Assembly (NCBI GenBank): GCA_028704885.1
Contig: JAQWEN010000001.1
Span: 651,203-715,202, forward strand
Direction of reading: 5' to 3'
From: Candidatus Shapirobacteria bacterium
GTDB taxonomy: Bacteria; Patescibacteriota; Microgenomatia; UBA12405
DNA: 64,000 nucleotides
The first letter of the stretch is position 1. Each line of letters opens with the position of its first letter. Under the pieces are notes generated by a model that had not been told where the DNA came from, did no database searches, and worked only from the letters and a program-made list of their open reading frames with translations. A program made the translations under genes and the position numbers. Shown one piece after another: positions 1 to 62,823 of the stretch.

Positions 1-1475
1 TTAATATACAACACGTCAGCTTCACTATTGTGAAAATTACGAAAAGCATCTTCTATTGAATCAACAATAGGTTCCCCTGCAATATTTAAAGAACTATTCA
101 TAAGTATTGGAACTCCAGTGATCTTACCAATCTCAACGAGAAGCTCATGAAGTACCGGATTGTCTGATTTGCTAATTGTTTGTATTCTTGATGTGTCATC
201 ATAATGAACAATTGCTGGGGCTATTTTTTTTAAAACCTGATTTATTTTTGGCGAAAAAGTCATAAAAGGTGATGGGTGATTGATTTTGAAAAATTTTGAT
301 AAATTTTCTTCGGTTGTTATTGGTGATATTGGACGATAAGGTTCTCTTTTTTTTATATCTATACTAAGTTTATCTTTTAATTTAATAGTTGATGGAAGAC
401 CTAAAAAACTTCTATGACCTAACGCTCTCGGACCAATTTCACTTTTTCCTTGATACCAAGCAATAATTTTTTTATCAACTAAATCTTGAATTAGTCTATT
501 TGGAATCTTTTTAATATCATCACCAAAATGTCTACCTAAAAATGGATACTTGCAAATAGTGTTTGGATATCTATACATAATTGCACCTAATGATTGTCCA
601 CAATCACTAGCTATCGGAGTTGTAATTATTTTTTTAAAAATTTTTAAATCATCTAAGGCTGATATTAAAGAAACATTTAAAGCACAACCTCCGACTAAGG
701 CTATATTTTTACTAATATTGCTATGTTTTAATATTTTTTCTATAAAATTATTTTGCCAGTACAGCTGAGCTGTAAATGCTAAATCACATCTTTTTTCATC
801 TCGCCATGGTTTTGAATAATCATTGGATAAACCGAATATTTTATTAAGATTTTCAACACCATCATTATGAAGTTTATTTATCTCTTTGCCATTTTTTTCT
901 AATAAATTATTATAATTTACTGAATATTTACCTAATCCAGCAAGACCCATGGTTTTTCCTGGATAAGTATCGTGTGCTCGACCAACGTTTGGATCAATAA
1001 CCATCTGTGTTATAGTTCCATAGAATTTTCCAGTAATAACTTCACTATCATAATCTGCTATTAAAGAAATATTGTTGTTATTGTCTTTATAATAAAATTT
1101 AGTGGTTCCATCTTCTGACCCACCATCGGCACAAACAATTAAACAATCAGATTTGTGAATAGGAAAAATTGTACCAATATGATTATTGTGATGTCCTGTT
1201 TCTATTAGATTAAAATTCTTACCATTTATTGTTTCGTTTGAATTAAATTGATTGTTCCACTTTGCTACCAAAACTTCTTTTACTTGTTTTATATCTATAT
1301 TTAAATAGTGAAGTGAATAATTTATTAACTCGAACATTTGTTCTTTGTTTAAATGAATGTGTTTTTTTCTAAAATATCTTTCTGCTTCTAAATGAAGAAT
1401 TATTTCTTTGTCGTCGGCGAAGGTAATAGATGAATCATGGTAACCAAAATATACTGAAAGTATGTAATTTTTCAT
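1..1475 (-). CDS. NodU/CmcH/TobZ-family carbamoyltransferase (3'-partial; C-terminus runs off the window start)
   Basis: Not in the ORF track because no stop lies in the window. Start ATG = revcomp of cat at 1473-1475. The N-terminus MKNYILSVYFGYHDSSITFADDKEIILHLEAERYFRKKH matches the carbamoyltransferase N-terminal signature (YHDS...EERF.R.KH). The Kae1-like core has LVGGCALNVSL (GGVALN motif) and SDCGQSLGA. The C-terminal YrdC-like carbamoyltransferase domain has RSFLG...REPYRPISP...PAIVHYDDTSRIQT...PILMNSSLNIAGEPIV. It lies 9 nt downstream of the viperin-like gene. Confidence 0.85.
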   Translation of the reverse strand, partial: MKNYILSVYFGYHDSSITFADDKEIILHLEAERYFRKKHIHLNKEQMFELINYSLHYLNIDIKQVKEVLVAKWNNQFNSNETINGKNFNLIETGHHNNHIGTIFPIHKSDCLIVCADGGSEDGTTKFYYKDNNNNISLIADYDSEVITGKFYGTITQMVIDPNVGRAHDTYPGKTMGLAGLGKYSVNYNNLLEKNGKEINKLHNDGVENLNKIFGLSNDYSKPWRDEKRCDLAFTAQLYWQNNFIEKILKHSNISKNIALVGGCALNVSLISALDDLKIFKKIITTPIASDCGQSLGAIMYRYPNTICKYPFLGRHFGDDIKKIPNRLIQDLVDKKIIAWYQGKSEIGPRALGHRSFLGLPSTIKLKDKLSIDIKKREPYRPISPITTEENLSKFFKINHPSPFMTFSPKINQVLKKIAPAIVHYDDTSRIQTISKSDNPVLHELLVEIGKITGVPILMNSSLNIAGEPIVDSIEDAFRNFHNSEADVLYI

Positions 1476-1484
1476 ATTTTTTAA

Positions 1485-2456
1485 TTACTTTATTGTCCAC
1501 TCTCTATTATTGATTGTTTTTTTAATTGTTTTTTGAAATTTGGTTATCGTTTCATATATATCTTCTTTGTTTGCATTGTTAGTATCTAAAATACTTCTAT
1601 GTTTATTATCTACCAACTGAAGCATTCCATCTGGAGAAACAAAAAAATAAGCATTATTGTGATCTGAGTTTGCACGAGGAGCTATATTTGCCTGAGGAAA
1701 TCTTTTTTTTAGATGATTAATAACTGACCAAAATTTTTGATCGTCAATTTCGTATCGTTTAGCATTATTTTCTCCCCTTTCTATTTTTTCAAATTGATAA
1801 ATTCGCCAAATGTCGGGATGAGATATCCCTGGTGTTTCATATAATAAGACTCCTATATTTTCAATATCATCAATATTTATTTTTGAAACTATTGTCCCAA
1901 TTTTAATTTTATGGTCTGGTTTTTCTTTATCTAAATAAACAAGTATAGATTTTACATTATCAATCATATAAGAAGCCCTTCCCATCAAATTGTTCATTTT
2001 TTTATTTGATCCATCAAGAGGTAACCCTAAAACTTTGATATTATCTTTAATTTCTTTATATCTTGTAGAGAGATATGTACCATTTGTCGATAAATATACT
2101 GAAATATCTAAATTATTTGCAATTTTTATAATTTCTGGAGTATCTTTTCTAAGAAGCGGTTCCCCACCACCAATATTAATCTTTTTTAATCCTAACTCAG
2201 CAAATGTTATTAATAATTTTGTAATTTGATCAAATGTTAATTCAGGTCTAGATTCATTTAATCCAGTTATATTTATAGTTTCAATACTAGGTTTGTATAA
2301 AAAGACCTCTTGTGAATTTATCTCTTTAATATTTTGATTATCTATTGGATTATCAGCACCATAACAAAAAGGACATTTCATATCACACCTACCAGTTATA
2401 AAAAAATCGATTATAAGATCTGGACTTAATTTATTATTTTTATTTTTTTTTATCAT
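1485..2456 (-). CDS. radical SAM enzyme, viperin-like (prokaryotic viperin/pVip candidate; predicted ddhNTP synthase)
   Basis: CxxxCxxC motif in ITGRCDMKCPFCYG. The SAM-binding motif INIGGGEPLL is present. Blocks resemble animal viperin: KINIGGGEPLL vs KINFSGGEPFL; YLSTNGTYL vs SIVSNGSLI; PLDGSNKKMNNLMGRAS vs SCDSFDEEVNVLIGRGQG; and the viperin-specific C-terminal block DIWRIYQFEKIERGENN vs VRWKVFQCLLIEGENCG. Its 323 aa matches the viperin core length. It is adjacent to a P-loop nucleotide kinase, as for described pVips. Confidence 0.65.
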   Translation of the reverse strand: MIKKNKNNKLSPDLIIDFFITGRCDMKCPFCYGADNPIDNQNIKEINSQEVFLYKPSIETINITGLNESRPELTFDQITKLLITFAELGLKKINIGGGEPLLRKDTPEIIKIANNLDISVYLSTNGTYLSTRYKEIKDNIKVLGLPLDGSNKKMNNLMGRASYMIDNVKSILVYLDKEKPDHKIKIGTIVSKINIDDIENIGVLLYETPGISHPDIWRIYQFEKIERGENNAKRYEIDDQKFWSVINHLKKRFPQANIAPRANSDHNNAYFFVSPDGMLQLVDNKHRSILDTNNANKEDIYETITKFQKTIKKTINNREWTIK

Positions 2457-2465
2457 TTTAAATGA

Positions 2466-3296
2466 TTAAATTATGTGTGATTTGATTATTGAAACAATAT
2501 CATCTATTGGCTTGTCTGTTTCTATCACAATATATTCAAGACCAATTTCTTGTTTGGCTATTTCCAAGGCTTGATGAAAACCTCTTGATTCATTTACAAT
2601 TACATTATAACTACTATAATCCCAGAGACTAATTTCTTTTTTAAGTAAATTGGGATTTTTTTCAATAATTTTTTTTGTATTTAAAATGATTTTTTCTCTT
2701 ACATCTGAAGGAGGCTGGATAATATCTAATGCATTATTTATCATTGAATCTTGATTTTCGACGCCAATAGTAGATCTTGCTAATTGTCTAGATATAGAAA
2801 TAACAGGATCAATATCAAGTAAAAATATTTTCTTAATATTAAGAAGTTTTGTGAGCTTTAAGGCTTCTTCTTTAATTTCATCTATATAGGGATTATTAGG
2901 ATCTTCAGAAAGACAAAAGGCTAAAGTCATTAGTGGAGTGCGATCTAAAAGATGATAGGTATTTTCATTATATGAATCAAGACTTTTTAAAAATAAATTT
3001 GTTTGATATTTTGTGGCAAGTCTAAACAATTTTTGTTTTTTATGATCTTCAAGTTGGCGTTCGGTTTGATTACCTTGTTTTCTTTGTTCTTCTCTGGCAT
3101 ATAAAATTTTTTTTAATGTACCTACTCTTTCGGAATTTCCCATTCCAGCAATTTTAGAAATTACAACCTCATTTTCATTAGATTTAAGAGATTCACTAAG
3201 TTTTATTAACGAATGGCTTTTTCCAGAACCGCCTATACCATCAATAGCGTATATTTTTCTATTAAATATTTCCCTATGTTCACATTCAATATTCAC
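2466..3296 (-). CDS. thymidylate-kinase-family P-loop nucleoside-monophosphate kinase (Tmk-like, divergent)
   Basis: P-loop IYAIDGIGGSGKSHS matches Tmk G-x-DG-xGKST. A DR motif is present (LLDRTPLMTLAF). An insertion rich in charged residues is present. The start is GTG. It ends 10 nt upstream of the viperin-like gene. Confidence 0.65.
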   Translation of the reverse strand: MNIECEHREIFNRKIYAIDGIGGSGKSHSLIKLSESLKSNENEVVISKIAGMGNSERVGTLKKILYAREEQRKQGNQTERQLEDHKKQKLFRLATKYQTNLFLKSLDSYNENTYHLLDRTPLMTLAFCLSEDPNNPYIDEIKEEALKLTKLLNIKKIFLLDIDPVISISRQLARSTIGVENQDSMINNALDIIQPPSDVREKIILNTKKIIEKNPNLLKKEISLWDYSSYNVIVNESRGFHQALEIAKQEIGLEYIVIETDKPIDDIVSIIKSHII

Positions 3297-3357: not shown

Positions 3358-3864
3358 TTAAAATTCCTTATTCGGTTGAGAGATATCTATTAATTTAATT
3401 TTTGTTTTGTTCATCATTGTTTCGTCACCAGGTTTCAATTTATTTAATCTACTAATAATGGGTGCTTGAAAAGATATTGTTTCTGAATTATTTTCTACTT
3501 CTGTTGAGATTGTTGCATCCCATGGAGTACCGATTTTAAGAATTGTATTTTTATCTTCATTTTCAAATCTAATAACTAATTTTCTGCCAATAATAAAACC
3601 TTCTACAGATTCACCTTCTCTAATTATCACTGCATTATTCAATGCTTTTGTTCTTCTCGAGATTTCATCTTCAATACTATTCCAACCACCTAAAGCATCT
3701 AAAACTGTAGCTGATTGTCTAAAAGTACCGAGATCATAAGATTCATTAACAGTTGTTAGTTCTGCTTCTCTTTTTTTTTCTAGAGTTTCAATGCTGACTT
3801 TTAATAAATCTCTAGTTTTTTGTGTCATATAATCAGATATTTTTTCCATATGGTATTTTATCAT
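3358..3864 (-). CDS. greA: GreA/GreB-family transcription elongation factor
   Basis: N-terminal coiled-coil region. The C-terminal FKBP-like block IIGRKLVIRFE...ISFQAPIISRLNKLKPGDE matches the GreA ISxxSPxGxALxGKxVGD region. Size is 168 aa. Confidence 0.65.
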   Translation of the reverse strand: MIKYHMEKISDYMTQKTRDLLKVSIETLEKKREAELTTVNESYDLGTFRQSATVLDALGGWNSIEDEISRRTKALNNAVIIREGESVEGFIIGRKLVIRFENEDKNTILKIGTPWDATISTEVENNSETISFQAPIISRLNKLKPGDETMMNKTKIKLIDISQPNKEF

Positions 3865-3912: not shown

Positions 3913-3949
3913 TTGTAACCAAAAACCCTCCGATGTTTTTCGGAGGGTT
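3913..3949 (-). terminator. rho-independent terminator downstream of pnp
   Basis: Hairpin aaccctccg-N8-cggagggtt (3924-3949) followed on the minus strand by a T-run (revcomp of ttgtaaccaaaaa). Confidence 0.6.
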
Positions 3950-27992: not shown

Positions 27993-30335
27993 CTATAGTT
28001 GGTAAATCTTAGTTTTACCAGACTGAAATATAATTTGCCCACCAATTTTTATAAAATTATCTTCATTTAATTCAGGATATTTTTCGTATTCTTTGGTACC
28101 AACAAAAATATATTGAATATTATATTTTTGAATTAATTTTTTTAATCGATTAAGATCTGAACTTGATGATTCGTTTTTAGTTTCTGGAATTTCGGCATAC
28201 AGAATTAATTTTTGATTTGGATGAATTAATGAGGGATTTTCTAAATTATTAAGCGATGCAATTTCTTTCCATAAATATTCATTTTTAAGTTGTTCTTTTG
28301 AAATTTTCCAAAGTGTATCTCCAGAAGAAACAGTATATTCAATATTTTTATTATTTTCTAATGGTTCATTGTTTTTAGTTGATGATTCATAGATGGCTTG
28401 AACGTCGTCTTGGCGTTGTTTTGGTTTATCGTAACCTCCACGCCAAAGCCATTCATGAACTATCCAACCTTCAACAGTTGGAAGGCCGGTAGCGACAGAA
28501 ATTTGATTGAAAGTAGTATAACTATCACCTACTGCTTCAAGCATGACTGGTTGACCGGAAATATTTTTGTTAATCCAATCAATCGCTTTAAAATTATCAG
28601 AATAACCGTCTTTTAAGTAATTTAAACCCCACAATCCTTGATAAGTTTTTGAGCCGTAAAATGATTTAATGGCAAAATAGGGATAAATTAAATGGATTGA
28701 AAAAATTAAAGTAAAAAGAATACCATATAAAATATTTGGAATTTTGGATTTTAATAATAATCTGGTTTTGTAAAAAACATAGCCGGAAACTAGGGCATAC
28801 ATCATGAAGGCCTGATAAACTAATTTGAACATGGTGTTGGCGCGACGGTGTTCGTAAATATAAATATCCTTTAAGTAAACTAATTCGGGAATAATAATCA
28901 AAATAGTGGCGGTAATGATCAGAGCAAAAACAAAAAGATCAGAATTTGAATTATAATTTTTAATTTTTAATTTGAAATTTTTAATAAACGATAATATCAG
29001 GGGTAAAACAATTAACCAAAAACCACCATATAAAATAAACAATTGATAAAAAGCACTGTGACCATCAGAAATTCTGATACCATTAGTCATGGGAACAAAA
29101 TTTGAAGAGAAGGGAATACTAAAAATAAACCAAGCTGCAATTGTTAAGACTCCATTGATTAAAGTTTTTTTAATAGCTGATTTTCGATCATTTTTAAGAT
29201 TCAAAAAGAAAGTAAAAACAGCAAAAAGAAGACCATAAATAGCAAAATCCCAAGCATTGGTCATATAAGCAATTGACAAAACAAAACCGGAAATAATAAT
29301 AACAGGATAGTTAATTAAAGCAGAAGAAAAAAAACTTGAAGCTAATAAAAAAGCCATAAAAAATAAGACAATAGGAATGTCATTCATATGACCATGAAGG
29401 TCAGCAACGACAAAACTATAAAGTGGAAACTCGTGAATAGTTTTATCTTTAATATCAGGGTCGTGACCAATAAAACGAGTGGCGTCTGGATACCAATATT
29501 TATCGGCTGACTCACTAATAGCTTTTTTTGATAAAACTAATTTGCCATTATCTTGAATATCTATTTTGGCAATTTTATAAACTGAATGAAGATTGCCACC
29601 AAAAGTTAGAAGAAGAGCTGAAATTAAACCAGCGATGATAATTTTTGGAACAAACCCACCCGCCCTATGGGCACCCTCCCTTGACAAGGAGGGCTTTATT
29701 GTTAAAAAAACTAGATTTGAAGCAATAGAAAAAGTAAAAGAAAAGGTAAAAGCACAAACAGTGGCTATAGATAAATTGTAAGTAATAGCCGAACTAATGG
29801 TGCTTAATTTAGTTAAAACAGCAAAAATTATATGACCAAAATAATAATAATTAATAATTTCACCAGAAAACCACATGTCTTGGGGAGGTAAAAATTTAGA
29901 ACGTAGGGCTGAATTAATAAAACCCCAATCCATATATTTTTCCAAACCTTCAATATCTGAGGCAAAACCCCTAACAAAAGACCAAACAACTAGAATTGAA
30001 AGAAATAAAATTTCTTGAAAAATGAAAACCTTATAATTTTCTTTAATAATTTTTAAAAATAGAGATAAATTATTTTTGTATCTAAGAAATAAAATATTTA
30101 GTAATAAAATTAGGGCTAAGATTAAAAATAAATTTAAATTACTAAAAACTAAAATTTTAAAAACACCACCGACTAAAATTAGATAAGTTGAAAAAACAAT
30201 ACAAATAATTTTGGAAAAAATATAACCCTTATCCCAAAATTTTTTAAATAGGAAAACAGTTATTGGCAAAGTTAAAAGACCTAAAGAAAAAATCAAAAAC
30301 CACCAAGAAATAATTGGAGTTAGATCGGACAACAT
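27993..30335 (-). CDS. large polytopic membrane protein (about 13+ TM helices) with C-terminal LysM domain
   Basis: Hydrophobic N-terminal 500 aa with the YWYPDATRFIGHDPD...HEFPLYSFVVADLHGH block. The C-terminal LysM is YTVSSGDTLWKISKEQLKNEYLWKEIASLNNLENPSLIHPNQKLIL. Contains the in-frame GC-rich element R2. Confidence 0.6.
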   Translation of the reverse strand: MLSDLTPIISWWFLIFSLGLLTLPITVFLFKKFWDKGYIFSKIICIVFSTYLILVGGVFKILVFSNLNLFLILALILLLNILFLRYKNNLSLFLKIIKENYKVFIFQEILFLSILVVWSFVRGFASDIEGLEKYMDWGFINSALRSKFLPPQDMWFSGEIINYYYFGHIIFAVLTKLSTISSAITYNLSIATVCAFTFSFTFSIASNLVFLTIKPSLSREGAHRAGGFVPKIIIAGLISALLLTFGGNLHSVYKIAKIDIQDNGKLVLSKKAISESADKYWYPDATRFIGHDPDIKDKTIHEFPLYSFVVADLHGHMNDIPIVLFFMAFLLASSFFSSALINYPVIIISGFVLSIAYMTNAWDFAIYGLLFAVFTFFLNLKNDRKSAIKKTLINGVLTIAAWFIFSIPFSSNFVPMTNGIRISDGHSAFYQLFILYGGFWLIVLPLILSFIKNFKLKIKNYNSNSDLFVFALIITATILIIIPELVYLKDIYIYEHRRANTMFKLVYQAFMMYALVSGYVFYKTRLLLKSKIPNILYGILFTLIFSIHLIYPYFAIKSFYGSKTYQGLWGLNYLKDGYSDNFKAIDWINKNISGQPVMLEAVGDSYTTFNQISVATGLPTVEGWIVHEWLWRGGYDKPKQRQDDVQAIYESSTKNNEPLENNKNIEYTVSSGDTLWKISKEQLKNEYLWKEIASLNNLENPSLIHPNQKLILYAEIPETKNESSSSDLNRLKKLIQKYNIQYIFVGTKEYEKYPELNEDNFIKIGGQIIFQSGKTKIYQL
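29654..29693 (+). repeat. GC-rich double-hairpin repeat element, copy R2, located in-frame inside the 27993-30335 CDS
   Basis: Sequence acccacccgccctatgggcaccctcccttgacaaggaggg. It encodes KPSLSREGAHRAGG in a loop between TM helices. Confidence 0.55.
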
Positions 30336-30337
30336 AA

Positions 30338-30910
30338 CTATTTAATAAAGAAAACAAAATTAAAAATCGTTCTGATTATTTCAGTAAGAAAAACTGGTAA
30401 AACAATCCATTTTGAAAGTAGCCAAATAAGGCTACCAGCAATTATTCCACCAAACATATCGATTGGATAATGAAAACCAATAAAAATACGGAAAAACAAA
30501 AGGGGTGAAACTATTGATAAAAATAAAGGAACTGAAAAAACTTGATATTGGATAATAAACAAAAGAAAATAAAGACTTTTAATGGTGTGACCAGAAGGGA
30601 AGGAACCAGTTTTATACCATTTTTTAACTAAACCTGGAGGAAGATTATCATTTTTCTCAAAAAGTGGTCGACGCCAATAAATTTTGCTTTTTAAAAAACG
30701 TTCAAAAAATTCAGCAATAATTGTAGCAATAAGAATCTGCCAAAAAATATTGGCATCTTTTCTGATTAAGAGATAAGAAACATAAAAGAAAAAAAACCAG
30801 ATTATATAATTAAGAATAATTAAGATTTTTTTTCTTAATAAGTTTTGTTCAAACCAGAGTAGCCAATCTTTTTTAGGCTGCCAAAATAAAAGCGATTTTA
30901 AAAAACTCAT
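30338..30910 (-). CDS. PAP2-family lipid phosphate phosphatase
   Basis: Motifs KSKIYWRRP (KxxxxxxRP), FPSGHT (PSGH) and FRIFIGFHYPIDM (SRxxxxxHxxxD-like). Six TM helices. Confidence 0.8.
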   Translation of the reverse strand: MSFLKSLLFWQPKKDWLLWFEQNLLRKKILIILNYIIWFFFFYVSYLLIRKDANIFWQILIATIIAEFFERFLKSKIYWRRPLFEKNDNLPPGLVKKWYKTGSFPSGHTIKSLYFLLFIIQYQVFSVPLFLSIVSPLLFFRIFIGFHYPIDMFGGIIAGSLIWLLSKWIVLPVFLTEIIRTIFNFVFFIK

Positions 30911-30953
30911 TCATTTATTATAAAACCTTTTTGAATATTGTTATAATTCAGTT

Positions 30954-32102
30954 GTGAAAATATTAATTTCAACACCTTATTATTTGCCTAATGTTTCGGG
31001 AATTACAGTTTATATTAATGTATTGGCAGAAGAACTGGTAAAAAGAGGACATAAAGTAACAATTTTAACCAGCAGACATGATTTAACGACAAAAAAGGAA
31101 GAAACTGTAAATGGAGTAAAAATAAGACGGTTAAAAATTGCTTTCAAAATAGGTAAAGGGTCGATTGTTCCCTCTTTTTTATTTGAATCAATAAAAGAAA
31201 TTAAAAAGCATGATGTAATTGACTGCCAACTTCCTCAGCCAGAATCTTTATGGATAGCAATTGTAGGAAAATTTTTAGGTAAAAAAGTATTTTTGACTCA
31301 TCATACTGATTTAAGTTTTTGGAAAGGATTTAAAAATAAAATAATTGACGGGGGAGTTTTTATTTGTCAATATTTAGCGGCATTATTATCAACTAAAATA
31401 ATCCCCTATACTGATGATTATGCTAAGAATTCATATTTCTTAAAAAGATTTTTTGATAAAACAGTGGCGATTTATCCACCAATCAAATTTGAGGAAAAAG
31501 AAGATTTTAATCTAGAAGTAAAGATTAATACATTGGTTAAAAATAAAAAATATGTGATTGGATTTTGCGGTCGAATTGCTAAACAAAAAGGAATTGAATT
31601 ATTAATAAAATCGAGTAAGTTATTGGATAAAAAATTAGGAAAAGATAATTATGTGATTCTGATGGTAGGACCAATAACGGTAATTGGAGAAAATTATTAT
31701 GATTATTTACAAAATAAATATAAATCAATCTTGAAAGAAAGATTTATTTTTATGGACAATATTGAAAGAAAATTTCTTTCTACTTTTTACAAAAAAATTG
31801 ATTTATTGGTTTTACCAAGTGACGACAGATTAGAATCTTTTGGTTGGGTGCAAATTGAAGCAATGAAATGTGGAACGCCATGCGTGGCGACAAATTTACC
31901 AGGAATGAGAATTCCTGTTTTAGAAAGTAAATTTGGGGAATTATTTGAAAATAAAAACGAGATTGATTTGGCTAATAAAATAGAATTGGTTTTGAAAAAT
32001 GGAAAAAAATATTACCAAAATAAATTTATTAAAAATATCGATATTTTTAATTACGAAAAAAGTTTAGATGATTACGAAAAATTATTTTCAGAAAGAGTTT
32101 AA
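30954..32102 (+). CDS. GT4-family glycosyltransferase (GT-B fold)
   Basis: 382 aa with a GTG start. C-terminal EAMKCGTPCVATNLPGM matches the GT4 E-x7-E region. The N-terminus ISTPYYLPNVSGITVY is typical of GT4. Confidence 0.85.
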   Translation: MKILISTPYYLPNVSGITVYINVLAEELVKRGHKVTILTSRHDLTTKKEETVNGVKIRRLKIAFKIGKGSIVPSFLFESIKEIKKHDVIDCQLPQPESLWIAIVGKFLGKKVFLTHHTDLSFWKGFKNKIIDGGVFICQYLAALLSTKIIPYTDDYAKNSYFLKRFFDKTVAIYPPIKFEEKEDFNLEVKINTLVKNKKYVIGFCGRIAKQKGIELLIKSSKLLDKKLGKDNYVILMVGPITVIGENYYDYLQNKYKSILKERFIFMDNIERKFLSTFYKKIDLLVLPSDDRLESFGWVQIEAMKCGTPCVATNLPGMRIPVLESKFGELFENKNEIDLANKIELVLKNGKKYYQNKFIKNIDIFNYEKSLDDYEKLFSERV

Positions 32103-33758
32103 ACTAAAAGCTGAGGTTTTTTGAAATATTAAGACTTTAGGATGATCATAAACAGTAAAAGCTTCTTCGGCAGAAGTGTCATTAAAGACAGGATAAGAAG
32201 TGAATTCGGCAACTTGTTTGAAACCCAAAGAACCATCAAAAAGTGATTGATAATATTTAGCGGTTAAGGGATAAATATTTGAATTTCTGGGAATGGGTAA
32301 ATAAAAACGATTTGAAGAAATAATAATATAATCTGATTTGATTAATTGGTCTTTTATAATAGAAATCTTTTCTTGGCTGTCTGAATCTGCAATAGCAAGA
32401 CTTTGGTATTGGTAATCATAAATAGATTTATTTTTCAAAAACAAAGGCAAGGAATCATCCCAATATTCAGTTGCTAAAGTTGAACCAATTGGAATATTTT
32501 GATAAATCCACTTGGAGGCAGTTACTCGGGTGTGATCTTTTAAATAAATAGAGATAAAACAAATTGGATAAATTAATAAAATTATAAAAAAGAAAATTTT
32601 TACTAATTTTAAATTTAATAGTTTTGTTTGATGAATAAAAAAAGCAGAACTAATACAAAGAAAAGGATAAATTGGTAAAAAGTAACGCATGGTGGTAACG
32701 TGTTGAATTCCCTGATAAAAAAATAGAAGTAATATCCAGAAAATGATAATTAATAATTCATAATTTTTAATTTTTGATTTGAAATTTTTAATGATTGAAT
32801 AAAAAATGGAGAGGATAAAAATAATTCCTAAAGGTAATCCGGCACCCCAAAGGATAATATTTTTAAGAGGAAAAATTAGAGGAATAGTTTTTAACCATTG
32901 AATCCCCGGTGGATAATAAGACATTTGATTGTAGCTTTGAAGTTCTTTTAAATTAGAAATAAATTGAGGATTAAGATTCCAATTTATTAAATTACCTGAA
33001 GAAAAAGCTTGAGGTTGATTAAACCTGAAAATTAATGAAGTAAATAAAACAAAAATTAGACCATAAAAAATTAGTAATTTGGGGTTTTTATAAAAAATAA
33101 ACAAAAAATAAATAAAGATTACCGGCAAAAAATAAATGGCAGAAATTTTGCAAGATAAAGCAATTCCAAAAGATAAAGATAATAAAAAAACTTTTTTAAA
33201 TATATTTTTTTTGTCTTTAATTATGACTAAAAAATAAAAGGAGAGAACTATAAATAAATTTAAAAATGGATCGACAGTATAGAAATGAGATAGCTGAATT
33301 GGCAAAACACAAATGGAATAAAAGAAAGAAGATAGCAGAGCAATTTTTTGATTAAATATTTTTTGAGAAATTAAATAAATTAATAAAACAATTAAAACAT
33401 CAGCTAAGATAGTTAAGCCACGGCCAACAAAATGAATTTGATCGTAAGTTATTTTATTTAAAAATTCGCCTGCTATCTTAACTAAATTTAAAGGAAAAGC
33501 ACCATAAACAAAAAAAGAAAAATTATTATTGTAGGGATTCAATGTTGAAGTTTGAGGATTTAGATATTGACTAAGAGAAGTTGGTATTTTAATAGTAGTT
33601 AAAACCATGGTTAAAAATCTTTCATCTGGATGGAGATGTTGATTTTGATCCCAATTAAAACCAATAGTTCTAAAAAAAAGAGCTATAGATAAAATCGATA
33701 ATAGCAAAAAAATATTTTTTTTAGATTTAATTAGATAGAAGCAATTCTTGATAGTCAT
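32088..33758 (-). CDS. GT-C-fold polyprenyl-phosphate-dependent membrane glycosyltransferase (ArnT/PMT-like), paralog 1
   Basis: N-terminal loop motif HPDERF (the DE motif of GT-C enzymes). About 12 TM helices and a C-terminal soluble domain shared with the neighbouring paralog (YYQSLFDGSLGF...VYDHPKVLIFQK). Confidence 0.6.
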   Translation of the reverse strand: MTIKNCFYLIKSKKNIFLLLSILSIALFFRTIGFNWDQNQHLHPDERFLTMVLTTIKIPTSLSQYLNPQTSTLNPYNNNFSFFVYGAFPLNLVKIAGEFLNKITYDQIHFVGRGLTILADVLIVLLIYLISQKIFNQKIALLSSFFYSICVLPIQLSHFYTVDPFLNLFIVLSFYFLVIIKDKKNIFKKVFLLSLSFGIALSCKISAIYFLPVIFIYFLFIFYKNPKLLIFYGLIFVLFTSLIFRFNQPQAFSSGNLINWNLNPQFISNLKELQSYNQMSYYPPGIQWLKTIPLIFPLKNIILWGAGLPLGIIFILSIFYSIIKNFKSKIKNYELLIIIFWILLLFFYQGIQHVTTMRYFLPIYPFLCISSAFFIHQTKLLNLKLVKIFFFIILLIYPICFISIYLKDHTRVTASKWIYQNIPIGSTLATEYWDDSLPLFLKNKSIYDYQYQSLAIADSDSQEKISIIKDQLIKSDYIIISSNRFYLPIPRNSNIYPLTAKYYQSLFDGSLGFKQVAEFTSYPVFNDTSAEEAFTVYDHPKVLIFQKTSAFSLNSF

Positions 33759-35301
33759 CTGGACTTAGATTATTAACTTTTTTATAAATTCTAATAGTTG
33801 GTTGATCAAAAACAGACCAAGTTTCTTCAGCGTTTTCAGAATTTAAAAATAAATCCTTTTGATTACTAATTTTGATTATTTCCGAAAATCCAAGGTTTTG
33901 AGAAAATAAATTTCGATAATATTTTTGAGATAAGGGATAGTTTTCATTATTTTGATTTTTAAAAACTCGACGAGAAGGAATAAAAATATAATCGGCTGAA
34001 GTTAAAGCATCGGCTAGTTTGTTTAGATTATTTTTATCTGAATCCAATTCATAAAAATTAAAATTATCAACCTGAAGACTAGGGTAAGAAACTGGAAAGT
34101 TAACAACATTCCCCGATTCAGATAAAATAAAGGAATTGGATGGAATGTTGGATTTAACTAAATTTGAGGCATAAATTCTAACGTCAGGTGAAAAATATTT
34201 TTTGAAAAAATAAATACCTGGACTAATCATTAATAAAAGCAAAATAATAGTTAATATTTTATTGTTAATTTTTTTAAAAAGATAAAGACAAAAAAATGGA
34301 CCGATAAAAAAGAGGGGGGACATAAAACGAGTCCATTTTACAAATAGCTGACCAGCGTACAAAAAATAAATTATTGCTGGAACAAAAATTAATAATAATT
34401 CTTTTTTTAATTTGGTTTTTATAAAAAAGAAAAAACCAATAAAAGAGAAAATAAAAATAAATATTCCATTAGCATAGGGAAAAATATTTTTAAGCTGAAA
34501 AATATACGGCAGGGAATTTTCAAATTGACGGGTATAAAAAACTCTTAATTTACCGGTGGCAACTGCTGTTTCGTAAATCATTGATGATTTAAAATCTGAA
34601 AATTTGATTAGGTTAAAAGGAGAAAAAATAATTGCTAGTAATAAAAATATAATAGTAAATATTAAAGAGGTTAAAATAAATTTTGATATTTTTTTGTCTT
34701 TTAGAAAAAGCAAAAAGAAACAAAGATAAGTTGGTAAGACAAAAAAAATGGCGGTTATCTTCGAAGCCAGACCAACAGCACTAATTAAAATTAGAAATAA
34801 TAAATATTTCTTTTTTTGGTGTTGAAAATATTTTAAAGATAGGAGGATGTTGGCCGAAAAAACAAAGGTGAGAATTGATTCAGTGGTGCCAAAATGGGCA
34901 GATTGAATGAGACCAGGAGTAAAAATAAGAAGCAAAATGAATAAATAACTTATTTTTCTTGATTTAAAAATTATTTTGGAAATTAAATAAAAACAATAAA
35001 TCGAGAGACAGGAAAAGGTAGCTGACCAAAAACGCAAAGTCAAAATTATGGTGGAAAAATTATGTAAAGGGGTGGTTAGAAAGGTTAAAAAGAGAGGAAA
35101 TTGGCCGTAAGCAAAAAAATTGGGATTAAGGTTTTTAAAATTCATTTGAGCCACTGATGTGGCCATATTGTTTTCATCGGGATTAAAAAAATAACCATTA
35201 CCCCAATTTAGAAAACAAAAACGAGTAATAAGAGTAATTATCAATAAAAACAGCGGAAACAATATTTTTTTGACTTGATTAAATTGCATAAACAATACCA
35301 A
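33727..35301 (-). CDS. GT-C-fold polyprenyl-phosphate-dependent membrane glycosyltransferase (ArnT/PMT-like), paralog 2
   Basis: N-terminal NPDENN motif. Polytopic. The C-terminal domain YYRNLFSQNLGF...VFDQPTIRIYKK is paralogous to the 32088-33758 protein. Confidence 0.6.
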   Translation of the reverse strand: MVLFMQFNQVKKILFPLFLLIITLITRFCFLNWGNGYFFNPDENNMATSVAQMNFKNLNPNFFAYGQFPLFLTFLTTPLHNFSTIILTLRFWSATFSCLSIYCFYLISKIIFKSRKISYLFILLLIFTPGLIQSAHFGTTESILTFVFSANILLSLKYFQHQKKKYLLFLILISAVGLASKITAIFFVLPTYLCFFLLFLKDKKISKFILTSLIFTIIFLLLAIIFSPFNLIKFSDFKSSMIYETAVATGKLRVFYTRQFENSLPYIFQLKNIFPYANGIFIFIFSFIGFFFFIKTKLKKELLLIFVPAIIYFLYAGQLFVKWTRFMSPLFFIGPFFCLYLFKKINNKILTIILLLLMISPGIYFFKKYFSPDVRIYASNLVKSNIPSNSFILSESGNVVNFPVSYPSLQVDNFNFYELDSDKNNLNKLADALTSADYIFIPSRRVFKNQNNENYPLSQKYYRNLFSQNLGFSEIIKISNQKDLFLNSENAEETWSVFDQPTIRIYKKVNNLSPDDYQELLLSN

Positions 35302-52809: not shown

Positions 52810-53407
52810 TTTTGAGAGTACTGATAACAACTAAACGTTTTAAAGTGGTTCCTGGAGGCCAACAAGTCATTAAAGTGAGTTGATTTTGGCCGATTTTACT
52901 TGACATATAATTTAATTCATTGCCATTAATAATTTTTGTTTCATTAACAGTGTAAATATATTTTTGAGATTGATAATAAACAATAATTTCATCCCCTGTT
53001 TCTAATTTATTCAAAAGATAAAAGACGGCATTAAATTGATTGGCTTCATACCAATTACCAGCAGAATGGGCAAAAATAAAAGTGTTGCCGGATTTATCAG
53101 GGGTAGAAGTATCTTTGGCATGAGCAACCCCCTGAGTTAGAGCTCGTTGATAAATTTTAGAATTAAAAGGATCAACATTTTTAATAACTTTAGCATTGGC
53201 GTTAATTTTGGGAATAATAATGGAAAAGTCAAGATTAATTGGGACAATTTCAGTAGGTTTATCGGTTTTTTTATCTAGTTGATAAATTATTTCCGATTTT
53301 AATACTGGAGCAAAAGTAGAGACGGGAATTGTTAAAGAAATAAAAATAAAAAGAATTCCAACTAGAATAAATTTATTTCTTTTTATTCCTAATTTTTTTG
53401 ACAACAT
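52802..53407 (-). CDS. sortase (class A/E-like transpeptidase)
   Basis: N-terminal membrane anchor. Catalytic TLxTC as QLTLMTCWPPG, a His region (TFIFAHSAG) and an Arg (TTLKRLVVI). Immediately downstream of the giant surface protein. Confidence 0.72.
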   Translation of the reverse strand: MLSKKLGIKRNKFILVGILFIFISLTIPVSTFAPVLKSEIIYQLDKKTDKPTEIVPINLDFSIIIPKINANAKVIKNVDPFNSKIYQRALTQGVAHAKDTSTPDKSGNTFIFAHSAGNWYEANQFNAVFYLLNKLETGDEIIVYYQSQKYIYTVNETKIINGNELNYMSSKIGQNQLTLMTCWPPGTTLKRLVVISTLKND

Positions 53408-56400
53408 AACCAATTATAAACAAAACCAGAAGAGCTACTAGAGCCGAAGAGAATTTGTGACGGCTAATGAATGACTGGAATTGAGTGGAAAAACTTTTTG
53501 GATTTGGAGTTTCGGTACCTAAAATTGAGCCTTCTTGGTTTTCATCAGAAATGGCTTCTTGATCGATTTCTGACCCGTCTTTAGGAATATTATCGTCGCC
53601 AATAACCGGAATGGCACCGAGTACACTACCGGTAGTGGTTGTGGTTGTAGAAGTATAGACGGTAATAAAATCACCAGCTAGACCGCTGCCGTTGCCTGCT
53701 TCATCAAAGGCACGTATAACGTAATAATAGGTTTTATTACAGTCGGGAACATTAACGTCGGTAAAACTTCCTTTTTGATCGGGACTTATACCAACTTGAC
53801 CAATCTGGGAACCAGAGTCAGCAATAAATTTAGTGACATCAGCGCGATAAATTCTAATTATATTAGTTTTACCGTCATTGCTAGCCTTGAAACTGATTTT
53901 GTAATTACACCCCTCTCTCTCTTTGGAATAATCATTTGGAGTACCAGGACCAGAACTATCATAATCAACAGCCACAGAATCACTGCGATATTCTTCTCCA
54001 CCAGAGGAAGCGATGGCATAGAAATAATAGGTTTTTTCACTTTCAGTGAGCGGATTATTTTCTAAATTACATTCACCGGAATTACCACCAGCTTTGACAT
54101 CAACCGTGCCAATTTGAATTTCACTGGAATCGGGATTGACCTTAAAACATTTGACAGTTAAAGGTCGATTAAGAATATCAAGAGCGGTAAAGCTAAGAGT
54201 AAATTTGTCTTTATTAGTTGGAGAAATTGGATTTTCAACGCTAATAAAAATATTACTACTTTGAACAGCATTGGCAGCCTTGACGGAGAAAAGTGAAACT
54301 AAACTAATGAGGGTAATAATAATTAGACTTTTCATAATATTTTTTTCTTTTTTTAATCCGTAAATTATAAAACCAATGCCCAACAAGGATAAAATACCGA
54401 AGATAATCATCCAAACGGTCTGAGCACCAGTACCAGGCATTTCGGTGGTGGCACCAAGAACTTGGCCTTCTTCTTTGACAATATTAACGTCTTGGCTGGC
54501 AAAAACTGGATCAATTTTAATTTGAGTGCCAACGAAAGTAGAAGCTAAATAACCTGGAGCAATAGCGCTGGCTAAAAGTTTGTCAGAACTTTCAAGTGTA
54601 CATTCTTGGCTGTCTTGACAACCATAAGCCCAAGCGGCGTCTTTGTAGGTGCCAGGGTCGACAGAATTATCGATGGTGGCAACATATTTAAGAGTAACAA
54701 CATCGTCTTTATTAAGATCACCGATTTGCCATTTACCTGGAGAATGATAGACAGGTTCAGGAATCGATCTTTCAGTTCCATTAATTAAAACTTTCCAACT
54801 ACCGGCTTTATAAGTAAAGCCAAATGGTGGCAAATCTATAACTGAAACTCCTTTTATATTATTTTCTTGGACATTAAGAGTAATTGTATATTCAACTTCG
54901 GAACCATTGGTTTGAGCAGTTGGCCAACGATTGTTGGTTTTAGAAATTGTGAGTTTAGCAGGAACTTTCCAATTGATAAAGTTTACTGATTTGGATTCAC
55001 CGCTAGTGACTGTTATTGTAATATCATTATCTGATTTAAGTTTATAAGCAGAGGGAATATTTATTTCTGACAAAGTGTAAGTTCCTGGATTTAGTTTATA
55101 AACAGCTGGAGATAATTCGGAAAAATTACTATTTTCTTGACCCGTAACAGAAGTAGTAAATACATTATTATCTTCAATCTGTTGTCCAAGATTATCTAGA
55201 ACATCTTTATTAACAGTGACGGTAGCTTTTTGATAATTACCGATGTAACAAGTTTTATTTGCTCCAGCACTAATTATTAATCTATTGCTTGGGGATGATT
55301 GAGCTAATACTTCGCCCACTTTAAATATATCTTTTAAATTAAAAGCAGCTTCTCCTGGTGGAGTTGGAGTGGGAGTAGGATTGCTGGAACGATTAGTACA
55401 TTTAATGTCGGTTACACCACTAACACCACACCAATTACCCCAATCCCAATCGATGCTTCCTCTGTTGTAAAACAAATGGCAATTATTAAATTGCGTACAA
55501 GGTCTGTCTTCTCCATATGAAACTAGACTGTCATATCCATTTACTTCGCAAGCCCAAAGAGCACAGGTGGCGGCATCTCCACAACCATTCCAACCTCCGC
55601 AATTTCCGTGATGTCCATAAGCCTCTCCTGTTTTAGTAATTAAAACACCAGGGCCATTATCTTCGCAATATATATTGGATTGATACCAACCTTCCTGCAT
55701 ATTTTCCCCTAGAACATACTCTCCGGGAATTAAGCTAAAGATTGTTTTTCCAGTTTCGTCAGTTTTTTGAGTGGAACCAGTAGTATTCTGATCCATAGTA
55801 ATATCCCAATTTGGCAAATAAGGTTCATTTTTATCATGTTTTCCATTACCGTTAAGATCGTTAAATTTATAGACAACTACTTCACCTTTTTGTTGATTGC
55901 CGAAATTATATTCGTGACCTTCCACATAATTTAAACTTGAAGGAAATTCATTAGAATTATCATCCGGTAAATTTATGACATGACAATTGTCATTTTGATT
56001 TAGTGGATACGTTTGAATCCAACCATTTTGTAAAACTTCACAGACTTTGTATTGTCCAGGCAAAAGATGTTCAAACCAATACCAACCAAAGTGAAATTGG
56101 GTACTATCGGTGGTTGTTGATTTTAAAGGAATTGACTCAAACCCACCATCATCGTTAGATTCATAAAGATTAATGGTCCAATCGGAAAGCAAAGACTCTC
56201 CAATTCCGACAGTTGGCCCACCACTAGCATTCATATCACTCCATTTGTAACCATGAATAGTACCATTGGGAGTATTATAAAAAGTACAAATCGTATTTGT
56301 GTCTTTATAAACATCTACACTATCAACACTATCTGTGTTGTCAAAAGTACCATTTTCAAGACCGCAATTAGCACTGAATAAATCGTAGCCATTTTGTTTT

Positions 56401-59400
56401 GTTTCAATTACAGTGTATTCACCTGTTTTTAAATTTGAGAATATTTTTGTTCCATTGGCATCGGTTACGTCGGCAGAGGCATCGGTTGTATCAGCTCCTG
56501 TGCCATCGACATCAAACTGCCAATTTCCGGCAGATGTTTGATCATTGGTGGTATAAAGATCACCATCTATATCAATAATTTTATTAACAGTAATCGAGCC
56601 GGTGTCGCGGGTGTTGGTGATAGTACAAGTACCGCCTTCAGTATGAACATTTAAAGTAATAACTTTGGTTGATGGGTCCATTGAACAAACACCAGAAGCT
56701 CCGGTTAAAGTATAATTTGAGGCACCAGATTCAGTGACGGTGTAAGAACCAGTATCGTAAGTTTTAGTATCACCATCTTTGGCGGTTTCTTGACCGGAAA
56801 TAGTAAAAGTCCAATCAGTGTCTTGGGCAGAACCACCAAGAACAACTTTATCGAATTTAATATCGCCTGTTTTACGCGTATTAGTGTAGATACAAATAAT
56901 ATGTTGATCTTTGGCAACTGAAACACTATCATTGGCGCCAATGGAAATTACTGGTTCGGTATCGTTTGTGCCATTGTTATTGACATCGTTAAAACAAGAA
57001 AGTGGAGAAGCGGTGTAATTATCTAATCCATTAGTTTCGGATAAATAATAAGTACCAGTAATAACATTATTTTGGCCAGTTGATAAAGGTATAGCTCCGT
57101 TAATTCCGGTTTGTTGAGAATCAATATCACTTCCACCGGAAACTGTACCAATCTTAAGAGTTGTTTGACCACCATTACCTGACCAAGATTTTATTAATTC
57201 GATGGTTCCAGTGTCACGAGCATTAACAAAAGTACAAACTACATTTGCGTTTTCACCGATACCAACTACATGTCCACTAGCAGAATCAAATTCGTATAAA
57301 TCTCCAGTACATGAAATTGATACTTGGTGAAAATTTGTTTTAGGAGTTTCAGAAATAAAATGATTTCCTGTTACTGCTGTTATGGCAGAATCACCAGTAT
57401 AACCAGAATGAGCATATTCAGGAACTCCTAACCAACTAGTTTGCCATTGCCAATCAGTGGCTCCGGTTTCACCAGCATCGGTATAATCACCATCACCGTT
57501 TAAATCGACATTTTTTAAAACTCTTAAAGTGCCTGTCTTTCGGGTATTTGTAATAGTACAAGATTTGACATCTCCGGGAGCCAGAGTAATAGCGCCATTT
57601 GAGGCACAATCACCAGTAATGGCCTTATTATAGTCAGGGAAATTGGCACCAGTATTGTCATATTCAGAAACGACATAGTTTCCGGCATTAAATCCATTTT
57701 GAACGCCGGTTAAAACAGTAGTTGCTCCAACTTTTAGAGTAAATGAAGAAGCGGGCTTTGAATCCCCAACTACAATTTTGGTGACAGTAAGTTTTGGCTG
57801 AATATCATTATTGGTAATTGAACAAACAGTAGTTTGGCCAAGACCAAGTGTTATTTCACTGTTTCCATTTACAATAATTCCATTTGTACAAGTCCAAGCA
57901 CTGGCACTATAACCTGAAGGGCCGGATTCAGATAAAGTATAAGTACCAACTTTAAAGGATGATCCGCTAATAACATCGGTACTTCCAGATGCACCATGAC
58001 CTGATAAAGTACCAGCTGGTCCACCATTGGCAGTCAAAGTCCATGCTGATTCAAGAGCAGTACTTCCATTATCTTTTATTAAAATTTTATTTAAAGTTAA
58101 AGATGGAGCAATATCATCATTAGTGATAGTACAGGTTTTGCTTTGACCTAAACCAACAACAACATTACCTTGAGTATTGCAATCTCCTCCCCAATTACCA
58201 GCAGAATAACCCAAAAGATTGGTTTCGCCGACGAGGTGAGAGCCAGGATTGACAGCATAAGTAACTTCATCAAAAACAGGATTACTATCCACAGTAAGTT
58301 TAAAATCGTTTGGCTCAGCAATACCACCGTTATTATTAATTACAGTTTTATTAACAATGAGATAGGATTGTTGATCATCATTAGTAATGGTACATTTTTT
58401 AGTTTCACCTAATTTAACAGTAACTTTACCATCTAAACCACAATCCATTCCCCAAGTTCCGGCAGTGTAACCGGAAAGATTAATCTCACCGACAGTGTGT
58501 TCACCTGGGTTAACAGCATAAGCAATTTCGTCTAAGACAGCATTACCATCAACAGTTAGTTTAAAATCATCAGGTTTAGCTGATCCACCATTATCATTAA
58601 CAACTGTTTTGTCGACAATAATATAAGACTGCTGATCATCATTAGTAATAGTACAAGTAATATCTTGCCCTTCGCTTAGAGTTACAGTGTCACCTAAATT
58701 AGCAGGACAACCGGTACCACTAATTGAGACAAAGGAATAACCAACTAAACCAGTTTCATTAATAGCATATGGAATATTAGATTTAATAGAATATTTTTGG
58801 CTAGAATTAACTAAGGTTCCATCAATACTTAGTCCAAAGTCGTTAATACCAGCAGTACCACCATTATTGTTAATAACATTTTTGATTAAAGTAATTGAAG
58901 AAGCAATGTCGTCGTTGGTGATTGTACATGATTTATCGTCACCTAAGGCCAGAGTGATGGAACCATCTGGGGCGCAGGCACCACTGATAGTCGAAGAATA
59001 ACCTGGTTGATTAGTTTCGCTAATTTTATAATTACCAACATTAAATCCATTTTCTTGGCCGCTAGTAACTTGAAGGGAACCGACATATAACGGAAAATCA
59101 GAAACAACTTTGGTGCCGCCATTATCATTAACTACAATTTTAGTGACAGTTAGTTTTGGTTGAATTGGGGTATTGGTAATGGTACAAGTTATACTTTGTC
59201 CTAAAGATAGGGTTAAAATATTTCCAGTTGGAGTGGCGCCGCCAGTACAATCCCAAACTGAAGAATTAGTGCCGGTTGGACCACTTTCAGATAAAGTGTA
59301 AGTACCAGCTAAAACATTGCCAGTAACACTGCCCTGCCCTACTAAAGACGAACCGGTGCCAATAGCTGATAGTGTCCAACTACTGGGAGTATATCCACTA

Positions 59401-62711: not shown

Positions 62712-62823
62712 ATATAAGATTAATCTTGGGCAGACCAAATTTATAATAGTATCTACAAAGAGTATATTACTTTTTTATAGGAATTCAAGTCGAGCTGAAG
62801 ATAAACTTAATATGTTTTTATTA

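Follow-up and report, generated by a model that had tools for sequence, protein, structure and literature searches.

Viperins are the prime case of an immune enzyme found alike in bacteria, archaea and humans. The products known from them are simple 3'-deoxy-3',4'-didehydro (ddh) nucleotides. The prokaryotic viperins (pVips) were reportedly described by Bernheim et al. in 2021. MoaA (GTP 3',8-cyclase), the usual outgroup of viperins, has a radical S-adenosylmethionine (SAM) core that acts on a nucleoside triphosphate (NTP). The canonical ddh-nucleotides are RNA chain terminators (preprint 10.1101/2023.09.13.557418). Here we describe a locus of a Candidatus Shapirobacteria bacterium in which a viperin-like radical SAM gene (1485..2456, minus strand, an open reading frame (ORF) of 323 aa) lies next to the gene of a kinase with the fold of thymidylate kinase (Tmk; 2466..3296, minus strand, an ORF of 276 aa with a GTG start). 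Positions refer to the window, i.e. the whole stretch of 64,000 nucleotides that was analysed (contig JAQWEN010000001.1, positions 651,203 to 715,202 of the forward strand). An earlier reading of the letters (the sequence-only reading) had taken these genes for the hallmark two-gene module of kinase and viperin. Both ORFs are present as it described them, in the ORF listing and with the same calls in the NCBI and Logan records ('radical SAM protein' and 'hypothetical protein PHE32_03570'). The conserved unit, in contrast, also has at least a carbamoyltransferase and a GT2 glycosyltransferase. The system as a whole is bigger than a pVip with its kinase, and less ordinary; from it we infer a chemistry and a biological role.

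The viperin-like radical SAM enzyme

The radical SAM enzyme matches the Pfam model Radical_SAM with 69.5 bits. Its best model in NCBIfam is NF038283, 'viperin family antiviral radical SAM protein' (117.9 bits, E = 4.5e-34, model positions 2-270 of 281), and MoaA, the second-best named family, follows about 50 bits lower (62-67 bits, 66.6 at best). The PADLOC pVip models gave 117 and 106 bits (E = 2e-34), and the PADLOC pVip-kinase fusion model was aligned only over its viperin half (positions 220-423). When a profile of 53 family members was compared with the PDB, viperins came first, with 86-92 bits and near full length; GDGT-MAS (76 bits) and MoaA (65 bits) matched in the N-terminal core only. 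The AlphaFold2 model of the enzyme (predicted local distance difference test (pLDDT) 93.3, predicted template modelling score (pTM) 0.91) contains the viperin fold including the C-terminal extension. In a Foldseek search of the PDB the top 18 matches were all viperins (E ~1e-15 to 1e-12, template modelling score (TM) 0.67-0.81 on the target), followed by SkfB and MoaA. Mouse viperin with CTP (6q2p) was the best solved fold match (E = 2e-15, TM 0.75-0.81). Of the checks that the sequence-only reading had proposed, the profile comparison with other radical SAM subfamilies and the structure prediction both pointed to the viperins.

Further support is provided by individual motifs and residues. 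The cysteines C24, C28 and C31 of the CxxxCxxC motif and G97-G98-E99-P100 are invariant or nearly so in the 53 family members; the three cysteines correspond to C84, C88 and C91 of viperin. HMMER alignments of the window enzyme with mouse viperin pair the CxxxCxxC motifs, GGEPLL with GGEPFL and LSTNG with IVSNG; further blocks aligned are LDGSNKKMNNLMGR with CDSFDEQVNALIGR and WRIYQFEKIERGENN with WKVFQCLLIEGENS. Every block that had been named as shared with viperin was reproduced in these alignments, and the likeness is beyond chance (E = 4.5e-34). Tyr302 of viperin has been proposed as a proton/electron donor (PMC9642334). The equivalent residue, Y270, shows no variation in the alignment of 53 members, and each of the 40 family members whose partner set is known has it. 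K185, which corresponds to viperin K220, is found in 39 of these 40 members (R in one), and a basic residue is kept at R218, the counterpart of K247. We conclude that the enzyme shares the viperin scaffold and probably its radical logic, although details of substrate or reaction may differ.

While the viperins are its best match, the enzyme falls below the curated cut-off of NF038283 (117.9 vs. 180 bits). Ten family members scanned singly against this model reached 76-129 bits. Seven of the 10 nearest cluster representatives scored 86-116 bits, and three had no match at E <= 1e-20. None of the 134 nearest cluster representatives that were scanned (of 150 listed, from a library of 1.84 billion) attained the cut-off; three matched at E <= 1e-45, the best with E = 7e-50 and an estimated ~173 bits. 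A tree of 181 sequences was built by neighbour-joining only, with few canonical anchors (n = 4) and no MoaA outgroup. In this tree mouse viperin, the viperin-like enzyme 2 of T. virens and the proteins of M. hollandica and Thiodictyon, the latter two carrying the PGAP annotation 'viperin family', form an exclusive clade of four members. The window enzyme lies within its own separate clade of 69 members, and ranked by distance from it the canonical viperins take places 176-180 of 180.

Around the substrate site, N77, K220, N222, R245, K247 and the C-terminal RGG...W do not vary among the canonical viperins, and all of these but K220 and K247 are substituted in the family of the window enzyme. 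In viperin we take N77, N222, R245 and R347 to contact the ligand, and R245 and the RGG tail presumably to contact the gamma-phosphate. In 40 of the 40 family members with a known partner set N77 is replaced by D17, N222 by G187 and the C-terminal RGGxxxW by NRxW, and R245 is changed family-wide to V, I or T (position 216). H79 corresponds to F19 in the window enzyme, at a position that is variable across the family; the second enzyme of T. virens likewise has Phe there (PDB 9dfn, with the F40H variant in 9dfu). Directly after CxxxCxxC an insertion of ~32 residues is present (residues ~34-75). In the AlphaFold2 model, whose confidence is good here, it takes the shape of a beta-hairpin plus a helix. 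This insertion is confined to a 'long' clade of the family (311-343 aa) that mostly belongs to the Candidate Phyla Radiation (CPR).

Judged by its sequence, the radical SAM enzyme belongs to a family separate from the canonical viperins. The sequence-only reading had called it a viperin enzyme of the pVip type. Best profile, solved relatives and folds uphold the first part, since the enzyme is viperin-like and not MoaA-, QueE- or PqqE-like; membership of the pVip family is not borne out by the score of 117.9 bits and the position outside the canonical clade. Tools with looser thresholds might still label the enzyme pVip (PADLOC, E = 2e-34). Such labelling of the whole family in defence annotation would hide a distinct system.

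The island and its six genes

Read on the minus strand, pnp and a terminator are followed by the GreA-like gene, kinase, radical SAM gene, carbamoyltransferase, GT2 and Ham1/RdgB; the earlier description of a pair placed between greA and the pnp operon needs correction. Kinase and radical SAM gene are 9 nt apart (ORF listing). The carbamoyltransferase gene (3..1475, minus strand) starts 9 nt past the radical SAM stop, and the first 491 of its 498 codons lie inside the window. It was missed by the sequence-only reading because it continues past the window start. GT2 and Ham1 sit just beyond the window and were read from locus L001, a Logan contig of the same organism. There GT2 overlaps the carbamoyltransferase gene by 11 nt and is followed by the Ham1/RdgB XTP/dITP pyrophosphatase and then by an unrelated gene. 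At the other end lies the cassette-specific GreA-like gene (3358..3849, minus strand), which encodes 163 aa according to public records and whose ORF extends to 3864. Between its start and the pnp stop we noticed an intrinsic-terminator-like hairpin (3924..3949, minus strand) with a 10-bp stem, 6 GC pairs and a T-run.

The six genes also stand out by their composition. The GC content at third codon positions (GC3) is 0.14-0.17 in all of them (0.148 in the GreA-like gene), compared to 0.22-0.31 in pnp, rpsO, infB and other neighbours; in the gene past Ham1 it is 0.235. The terminator hairpin, which coincides with a step in GC3 from 0.26 (pnp) to 0.15, is the border of the island, at which a transcription unit of its own starts. 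Relative to the nearest relative, locus L002, the ratio of nonsynonymous to synonymous substitution rates (dN/dS) was 0.10-0.26 for all six genes, which indicates purifying selection on each. With values of 0.26 for the radical SAM enzyme and 0.11 for the kinase, both are functional genes. Direct repeats or att sites flanking the island were looked for, and only AT-rich chance matches came up. The island is rare: among 5.8e9 proteins the kinase has eight homologues and the GreA-like protein two. The six genes are a horizontally acquired low-GC3 island, with the radical SAM gene and the kinase gene at its centre.

The AlphaFold2 model of the kinase (pLDDT 88.4) retrieved thymidylate kinases in all of its top 50 Foldseek matches to the PDB, with a TM of up to 0.75. 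At the level of families the assignment fails, as the kinase reached 18 bits with TIGR00041 (dTMP kinase; cut-off 83.25) and 11.3 bits with PF02223 (Thymidylate_kin; E = 0.27, cut-off 27). The earlier label of a thymidylate-kinase-family P-loop kinase is therefore right for the fold and wrong for the family. The protein is ~70 residues longer than Tmk. The P-loop GIGGSGKSH, the LLDRTP motif and the LID arginines Arg170 and Arg174 are conserved or invariant in the eight known homologues, and five of the kinases, that of the window included, are encoded beside the radical SAM gene on the same contig. The PADLOC models of viperin-associated kinases (VakA, pVip-kinase fusion) gave nothing at E <= 1 with the window kinase. 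The canonical Tmk genes of two other loci of the family (L010 and L006) weakly match PADLOC VakA and PDC-M51B.

The carbamoyltransferase is of the TobZ/NodU/CmcH type. Like these enzymes it has both Carbam_trans domains above the Pfam cut-off, namely the YrdC-like Carbam_trans_C (178.5 bits, cut-off 27) and the Kae1-like Carbam_trans_N (61.6 bits, cut-off 24), and its sequence, read directly, retains two metal-site motifs near the N-terminus, GYHDSS and HHNNH. Its nearest PDB sequences are the carbamoyltransferase 7xb6 (137 bits) and TobZ (118 bits), and its closest named solved relatives are TobZ and the novobiocin and geldanamycin carbamoyltransferases. It differs from them in length (498 aa vs. 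576 aa in TobZ) and in a very divergent N-terminal half; only residues 330-491 align well. With 140 bits against the NodU model (cut-off 1000) it is not a NodU equivalog. For GT2 the best NCBIfam matches are the exopolysaccharide glycosyltransferases HpsE and EpsD, all far under cut-off, and the best solved relative is the teichoic-acid enzyme TarP. As known pathways, the MftC/MftF, arsenosugar and BlsE types were rejected, their profile matches being weak and far under cut-off and their partner genes missing.

Like the Gre factors (GreA/GreB, Gfh1, Rnk), the GreA-like protein can be aligned over its full length to greA models (NCBIfam greA, E = 8e-8), and it also matches the Rnk model (E = 4e-5). 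It differs from them in its score of 32.4 bits against a cut-off of 139, in its confinement to these cassettes and in the tip of its coiled coil. The canonical GreA tip is an acidic D..E. Here the tip reads D(L/P)GTFRQ, without the second catalytic acid of GreA. The protein is annotated as hypothetical by NCBI, and phmmer found no PDB match for it. The sequence-only reading had regarded the gene as the housekeeping greA; the 32 bits, the NCBI annotation and the mere two relatives among 5.8 billion proteins contradict this. In a tblastn search of the window, the E. coli GreA sequence matched no canonical greA, and the search also missed the GreA-like gene.

Recurrence and partner exchange in the family

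The order kinase, radical SAM enzyme, carbamoyltransferase, GT2 was found in L001 (this genome) and in L002, L003, L004 and L005, with tight or overlapping junctions. The proteins of L002-L005 are 51-89% identical to those of the window cassette. The flanks differ among these five close loci, with pnp in L001 and a 70-aa ORF, TruD, or an OLD nuclease and a type IIG restriction enzyme in L002-L005. The cassette of L004 directly abuts the Old nuclease (187 bits) and the type IIG restriction-modification (RM) system (914 bits). A GreA-like gene is present in four of the five close loci and occupies three positions: it precedes the kinase in L001 and L002, separates kinase and radical SAM gene in L004, and comes after GT2 in L003, where the assignment is weak (Pfam GreA_GreB C-terminal domain, E = 0.049, 24% identity in the alignment). 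The three positions favour a functional linkage over inherited synteny. Ham1 follows GT2 in three of the five close loci, and near the L003 cassette a NUDIX gene is found instead. In L003 (4869-5678, after the GreA-like gene) and L004 (5222-6088, after GT2) a conserved protein of 269-288 aa, with 46% mutual identity, stands in the place of Ham1. One of the two has a faint match to the 5'-nucleotidase family (E = 0.004), and the protein may be an alternative nucleotide hydrolase.

With the family signature, 48 more loci were recovered from GTDB genomes and JGI metagenomes, and partner genes were mapped in them by tblastn. A first architecture combines the radical SAM enzyme, carbamoyltransferase and GT2 with a Tmk-type kinase or a protein that we call p227, and with Ham1 or CYTH. 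The succession of radical SAM enzyme, carbamoyltransferase and GT2 occurs in the distant loci L006, L007, L014 (a Micromonosporaceae genome), L022, L026, L034, L035 and L037, and a carbamoyltransferase gene follows the radical SAM gene in 13 loci. A second architecture consists of an S-adenosylmethionine decarboxylase (AdoMetDC), a BpsA_C-type aminopropyltransferase, the radical SAM enzyme and p227, with CYTH, Ham1, NUDIX or an Apyc1-like enzyme of the metallo-beta-lactamase fold nearby. It is commoner than the carbamoyltransferase-GT2 type, being present in ~30 loci across CPR, Clostridia, Ignavibacteriota and others (L008/L011 (Woesebacteria CP055308), L012, L013, L015-L019, L021, L027-L032, L036, L038-L048 and L059-L062). 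L059 lies near Helicase-DUF2290. In a third architecture (L010:10001-12991; L024) the radical SAM enzyme is accompanied by a class I methyltransferase, CYTH and a canonical Tmk.

Ham1, CYTH or NUDIX genes are found in or beside most loci. The three architectures are interleaved within the radical SAM clades of the neighbour-joining tree, which indicates that the transferase sets have been exchanged repeatedly. What stays the same is the viperin-like radical SAM enzyme, accompanied by p227 or a nucleotide kinase and in most cases by an NTP hydrolase; the enzymes that transfer groups differ. PADLOC models matched none of the carbamoyltransferase, GT2, Ham1, AdoMetDC, p227 and CYTH partners. In the literature searched, we found no description of a viperin-like enzyme with carbamoyltransferase and GT2, or with AdoMetDC and aminopropyltransferase.

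The p227 protein (~225-227 aa) has invariant K14, Y52, R112 and H176 and the motif YFKYVHxPD. In actinobacterial loci a p227-like ORF lies between the radical SAM gene and the carbamoyltransferase gene (L014:8843-9360; L037:7850-8366). An identity of p227 as an NDK-like or Tmk-like kinase was rejected; the best hit of a PDB profile search was SCO1 (E = 0.036, spurious), and hhalign gave 0.2% probability for an alignment to the kinase family.

More distant relatives were observed as well. On the E. coli IncK2/Z conjugative plasmid NZ_CP027324.1 (L065, 116684-118694) a viperin-like radical SAM enzyme below threshold is followed by a deoxynucleoside kinase and NudI, and the cassette adjoins IS600. 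The distant relatives P0141, P0163 and P0136 are fusions to TIR, caspase (Peptidase_C14) or winged helix-turn-helix/AsnC ligand-binding domains.

Elsewhere in the window, a second stretch of low GC content (0.25-0.26, window mean 0.33) extends over 30001-34000. It spans the ORFs 30338..30910, 30954..32102 (plus strand), 32088..33758 and 33727..35301, and may be an acquired segment. A giant ORF of 3121 aa with a TTG start occupies 53373-62738 on the minus strand.

Possible function and relation to known systems

On balance we lean towards a modular cassette that makes a tailored nucleotide analogue instead of a plain ddhNTP, likely for chemical conflict and most probably against phages. In such a pathway the kinase would raise the phosphorylation state of a nucleoside monophosphate. 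The radical SAM enzyme would bind the resulting nucleotide, and a 5'-deoxyadenosyl radical would remove a hydrogen from the ribose; the product would be a nucleotide dehydrated as by viperin, or one activated in another way. Carbamoyltransferase, using carbamoyl-AMP chemistry as in TobZ, and GT2 would then decorate a hydroxyl or amino group of this product. Ham1 could trim the triphosphate, or prevent the analogue from entering the nucleotide pools of the cell itself. The GreA-like factor might serve the cell's RNA polymerase, acting in its secondary channel either to rescue it or to shield it from the analogue, and a cassette-specific factor of this kind fits a product aimed at transcription. 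A link to nucleotides also runs through the fusions of eukaryotic viperins to a triphosphatase/cyclase domain that have been reported (preprint 10.1101/2023.09.13.557418).

The suggestion of a role in defence is based on the patchy phyletic spread and rarity of the cassette, the OLD and type IIG RM genes at L004, Helicase-DUF2290 near L059 and the TIR and caspase fusions. Support of this kind is circumstantial; the role is plausible, and it is inferred together with the chemistry. Several points weigh against the pathway outlined above. Its substrate, product and order of steps are our proposal, and the changes of N77, N222, R245 and the RGG tail imply that the substrate may not be an NTP and that the reaction may not be a dehydration. 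Carbamoyltransferase and GT2 are also a typical glycan-tailoring pair (NodU/NodC-like), and the GreA-like identity depends on a sub-threshold match of 32 bits. In the window the island adjoins pnp and rpsO, not defence genes, and no infection sensor is evident. The radical SAM family was not found in IMG/VR (2.9 million viral contigs), and 50,697 GenBank phage genomes contained five weak partial matches only, to the radical SAM core.

The set of radical SAM enzyme, carbamoyltransferase, glycosyltransferase and kinase also resembles actinomycete nucleoside and aminoglycoside clusters. The locus could accordingly be a nucleoside-antibiotic-type cluster, whose decorated nucleoside or nucleotide is directed against competitors or against the host of the episymbiont, with kinase and Ham1 conferring self-resistance. 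The antibiotic enzymes TobZ and those of novobiocin and geldanamycin as closest named solved relatives of the carbamoyltransferase, the Micromonosporaceae version with carbamoyltransferase and GT2 (L014), and the swapping of tailoring enzymes, which is typical of natural-product clusters, are in line with this idea. However, the conserved cassette, as read in the five close loci, shows neither an exporter nor a regulator, one cassette adjoins OLD and RM genes, another lies near Helicase-DUF2290, and the cassette-specific GreA-like factor points to an intracellular action linked to RNA polymerase. We therefore regard an antibiotic cluster as rather unlikely, if still worth considering.

It is improbable in our view that the radical SAM enzyme simply makes an unmodified ddhNTP from an NTP supplied by the kinase, as a plain pVip would, and that carbamoyltransferase, GT2, Ham1 and GreA-like gene are unrelated neighbours. 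Viperins as best profile and fold match, the kept Tyr302 equivalent and a kinase gene only 9 nt away would agree with it, and a kinase gene lies beside that of viperin in ~12% of the bacterial cases (preprint 10.1101/2023.09.13.557418). In the five close loci, whose flanks differ, carbamoyltransferase and GT2 nevertheless follow the radical SAM gene with 9-nt or overlapping junctions; they come after it in distant phyla too, and the six genes have a common distinct GC3. Moreover, the window kinase is without match to viperin-associated kinase models. A plain pVip with its kinase is thus disfavoured by the conserved cassette of four to six genes, and by the enzyme's score under the pVip cut-off and place outside the canonical clade.

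We give little credence to a role in tailoring envelope glycans or nucleoside diphosphate (NDP) sugars. A nucleotide-sugar would then be altered by the radical SAM enzyme, O-carbamoylated by the carbamoyltransferase and passed on to a surface polymer by GT2, and the genes would form an accessory island for surface variation. HpsE/EpsD (far under cut-off) and TarP as the closest relatives of GT2 would suit such a role, as would the NodU-type carbamoyltransferases, which act on oligosaccharides. Loss of R245 and the RGG tail, presumed above to contact the gamma-phosphate, would fit a diphosphate-linked substrate. On the other hand, carbamoyltransferase and GT2 have no PADLOC match, and flippase, polymerase and lipid-carrier genes are not alongside the cassette in the five close loci. 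The same radical SAM family with AdoMetDC and aminopropyltransferase, or with a methyltransferase plus Tmk, CYTH or Ham1, is a poor fit to glycan tailoring, which also leaves the GreA-like partner unexplained.

The gene clusters with which phages hypermodify their DNA include P-loop kinases, radical SAM enzymes, glycosyltransferases and carbamoyltransferases, and TobZ-type enzymes have a Kae1-like half that is related to the enzyme making t6A in tRNA. A modification of DNA or RNA bases by kinase, radical SAM enzyme, carbamoyltransferase and GT2 is nevertheless very improbable, given that relatives are absent from the viral contigs and only weakly and partially matched in the phage genomes, that polymerase, glycosylase, hydroxymethylase and tRNA-binding domain are not in the cassette, and that the modelled radical SAM enzyme appears to keep the small-molecule viperin fold with its closing C-terminal tail.

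If the cassette makes a tailored nucleotide analogue, as we prefer to assume, it may tentatively be assigned to a modular class of cassettes for chemical defence, so far undescribed, whose core is a sister family of the viperins. From a reactive or dehydrated nucleotide made by the radical SAM enzyme, swappable transferases would generate varied analogues resembling chain terminators, and NTP hydrolases of the cassettes and, in this lineage, the Gre-like factor would protect the cell's own RNA polymerase; we consider this wider proposal possible and would not press it. A sister family feeding exchangeable carbamoyl, glycosyl, aminopropyl and methyl transferases would, if real, widen the range of natural antiviral and antibiotic nucleotide analogues, and the cassettes would be a source of new polymerase inhibitors. 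The cassette-specific Gre-like factor would represent a new kind of RNA polymerase self-protection. The island resides in a small-genome CPR bacterium (Shapirobacteria), where each accessory gene costs; the three-gene cassette of the E. coli plasmid (L065) could be studied in a culturable host.

The pVips are among the known systems closest to the locus. With these it has in common the radical SAM core, the viperin fold, the equivalents of Tyr302 and Lys220, an adjacent gene with the fold of a nucleoside monophosphate kinase and a patchy distribution across phyla. It differs from them by the sub-cut-off score and the separate clade, by the changed N77, N222, R245 and tail and by the ~32-aa insertion. 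Unlike the pVip genes, the radical SAM gene is embedded with carbamoyltransferase, GT2, Ham1 and GreA-like genes, and the kinase is not of the CMPK2 or VakA type. The eukaryotic pair of viperin (RSAD2) and CMPK2 likewise links a radical SAM enzyme of viperin fold to a nucleotide kinase. Identity between eukaryotic viperin and the window enzyme is however ~19%, and the selectivity residues Cys314 and Lys319 of the beta-8 loop have no clear equivalent in the latter; the window kinase has a Tmk fold, does not match viperin-associated kinases and stands beside extra tailoring genes. MoaA aligns to the window enzyme in the N-terminal core only, up to residue ~165-200. It is the poorer fold match (TM ~0.59, root-mean-square deviation ~8 A), and the cysteines of its C-terminal auxiliary cluster are not conserved in the family of the window enzyme.

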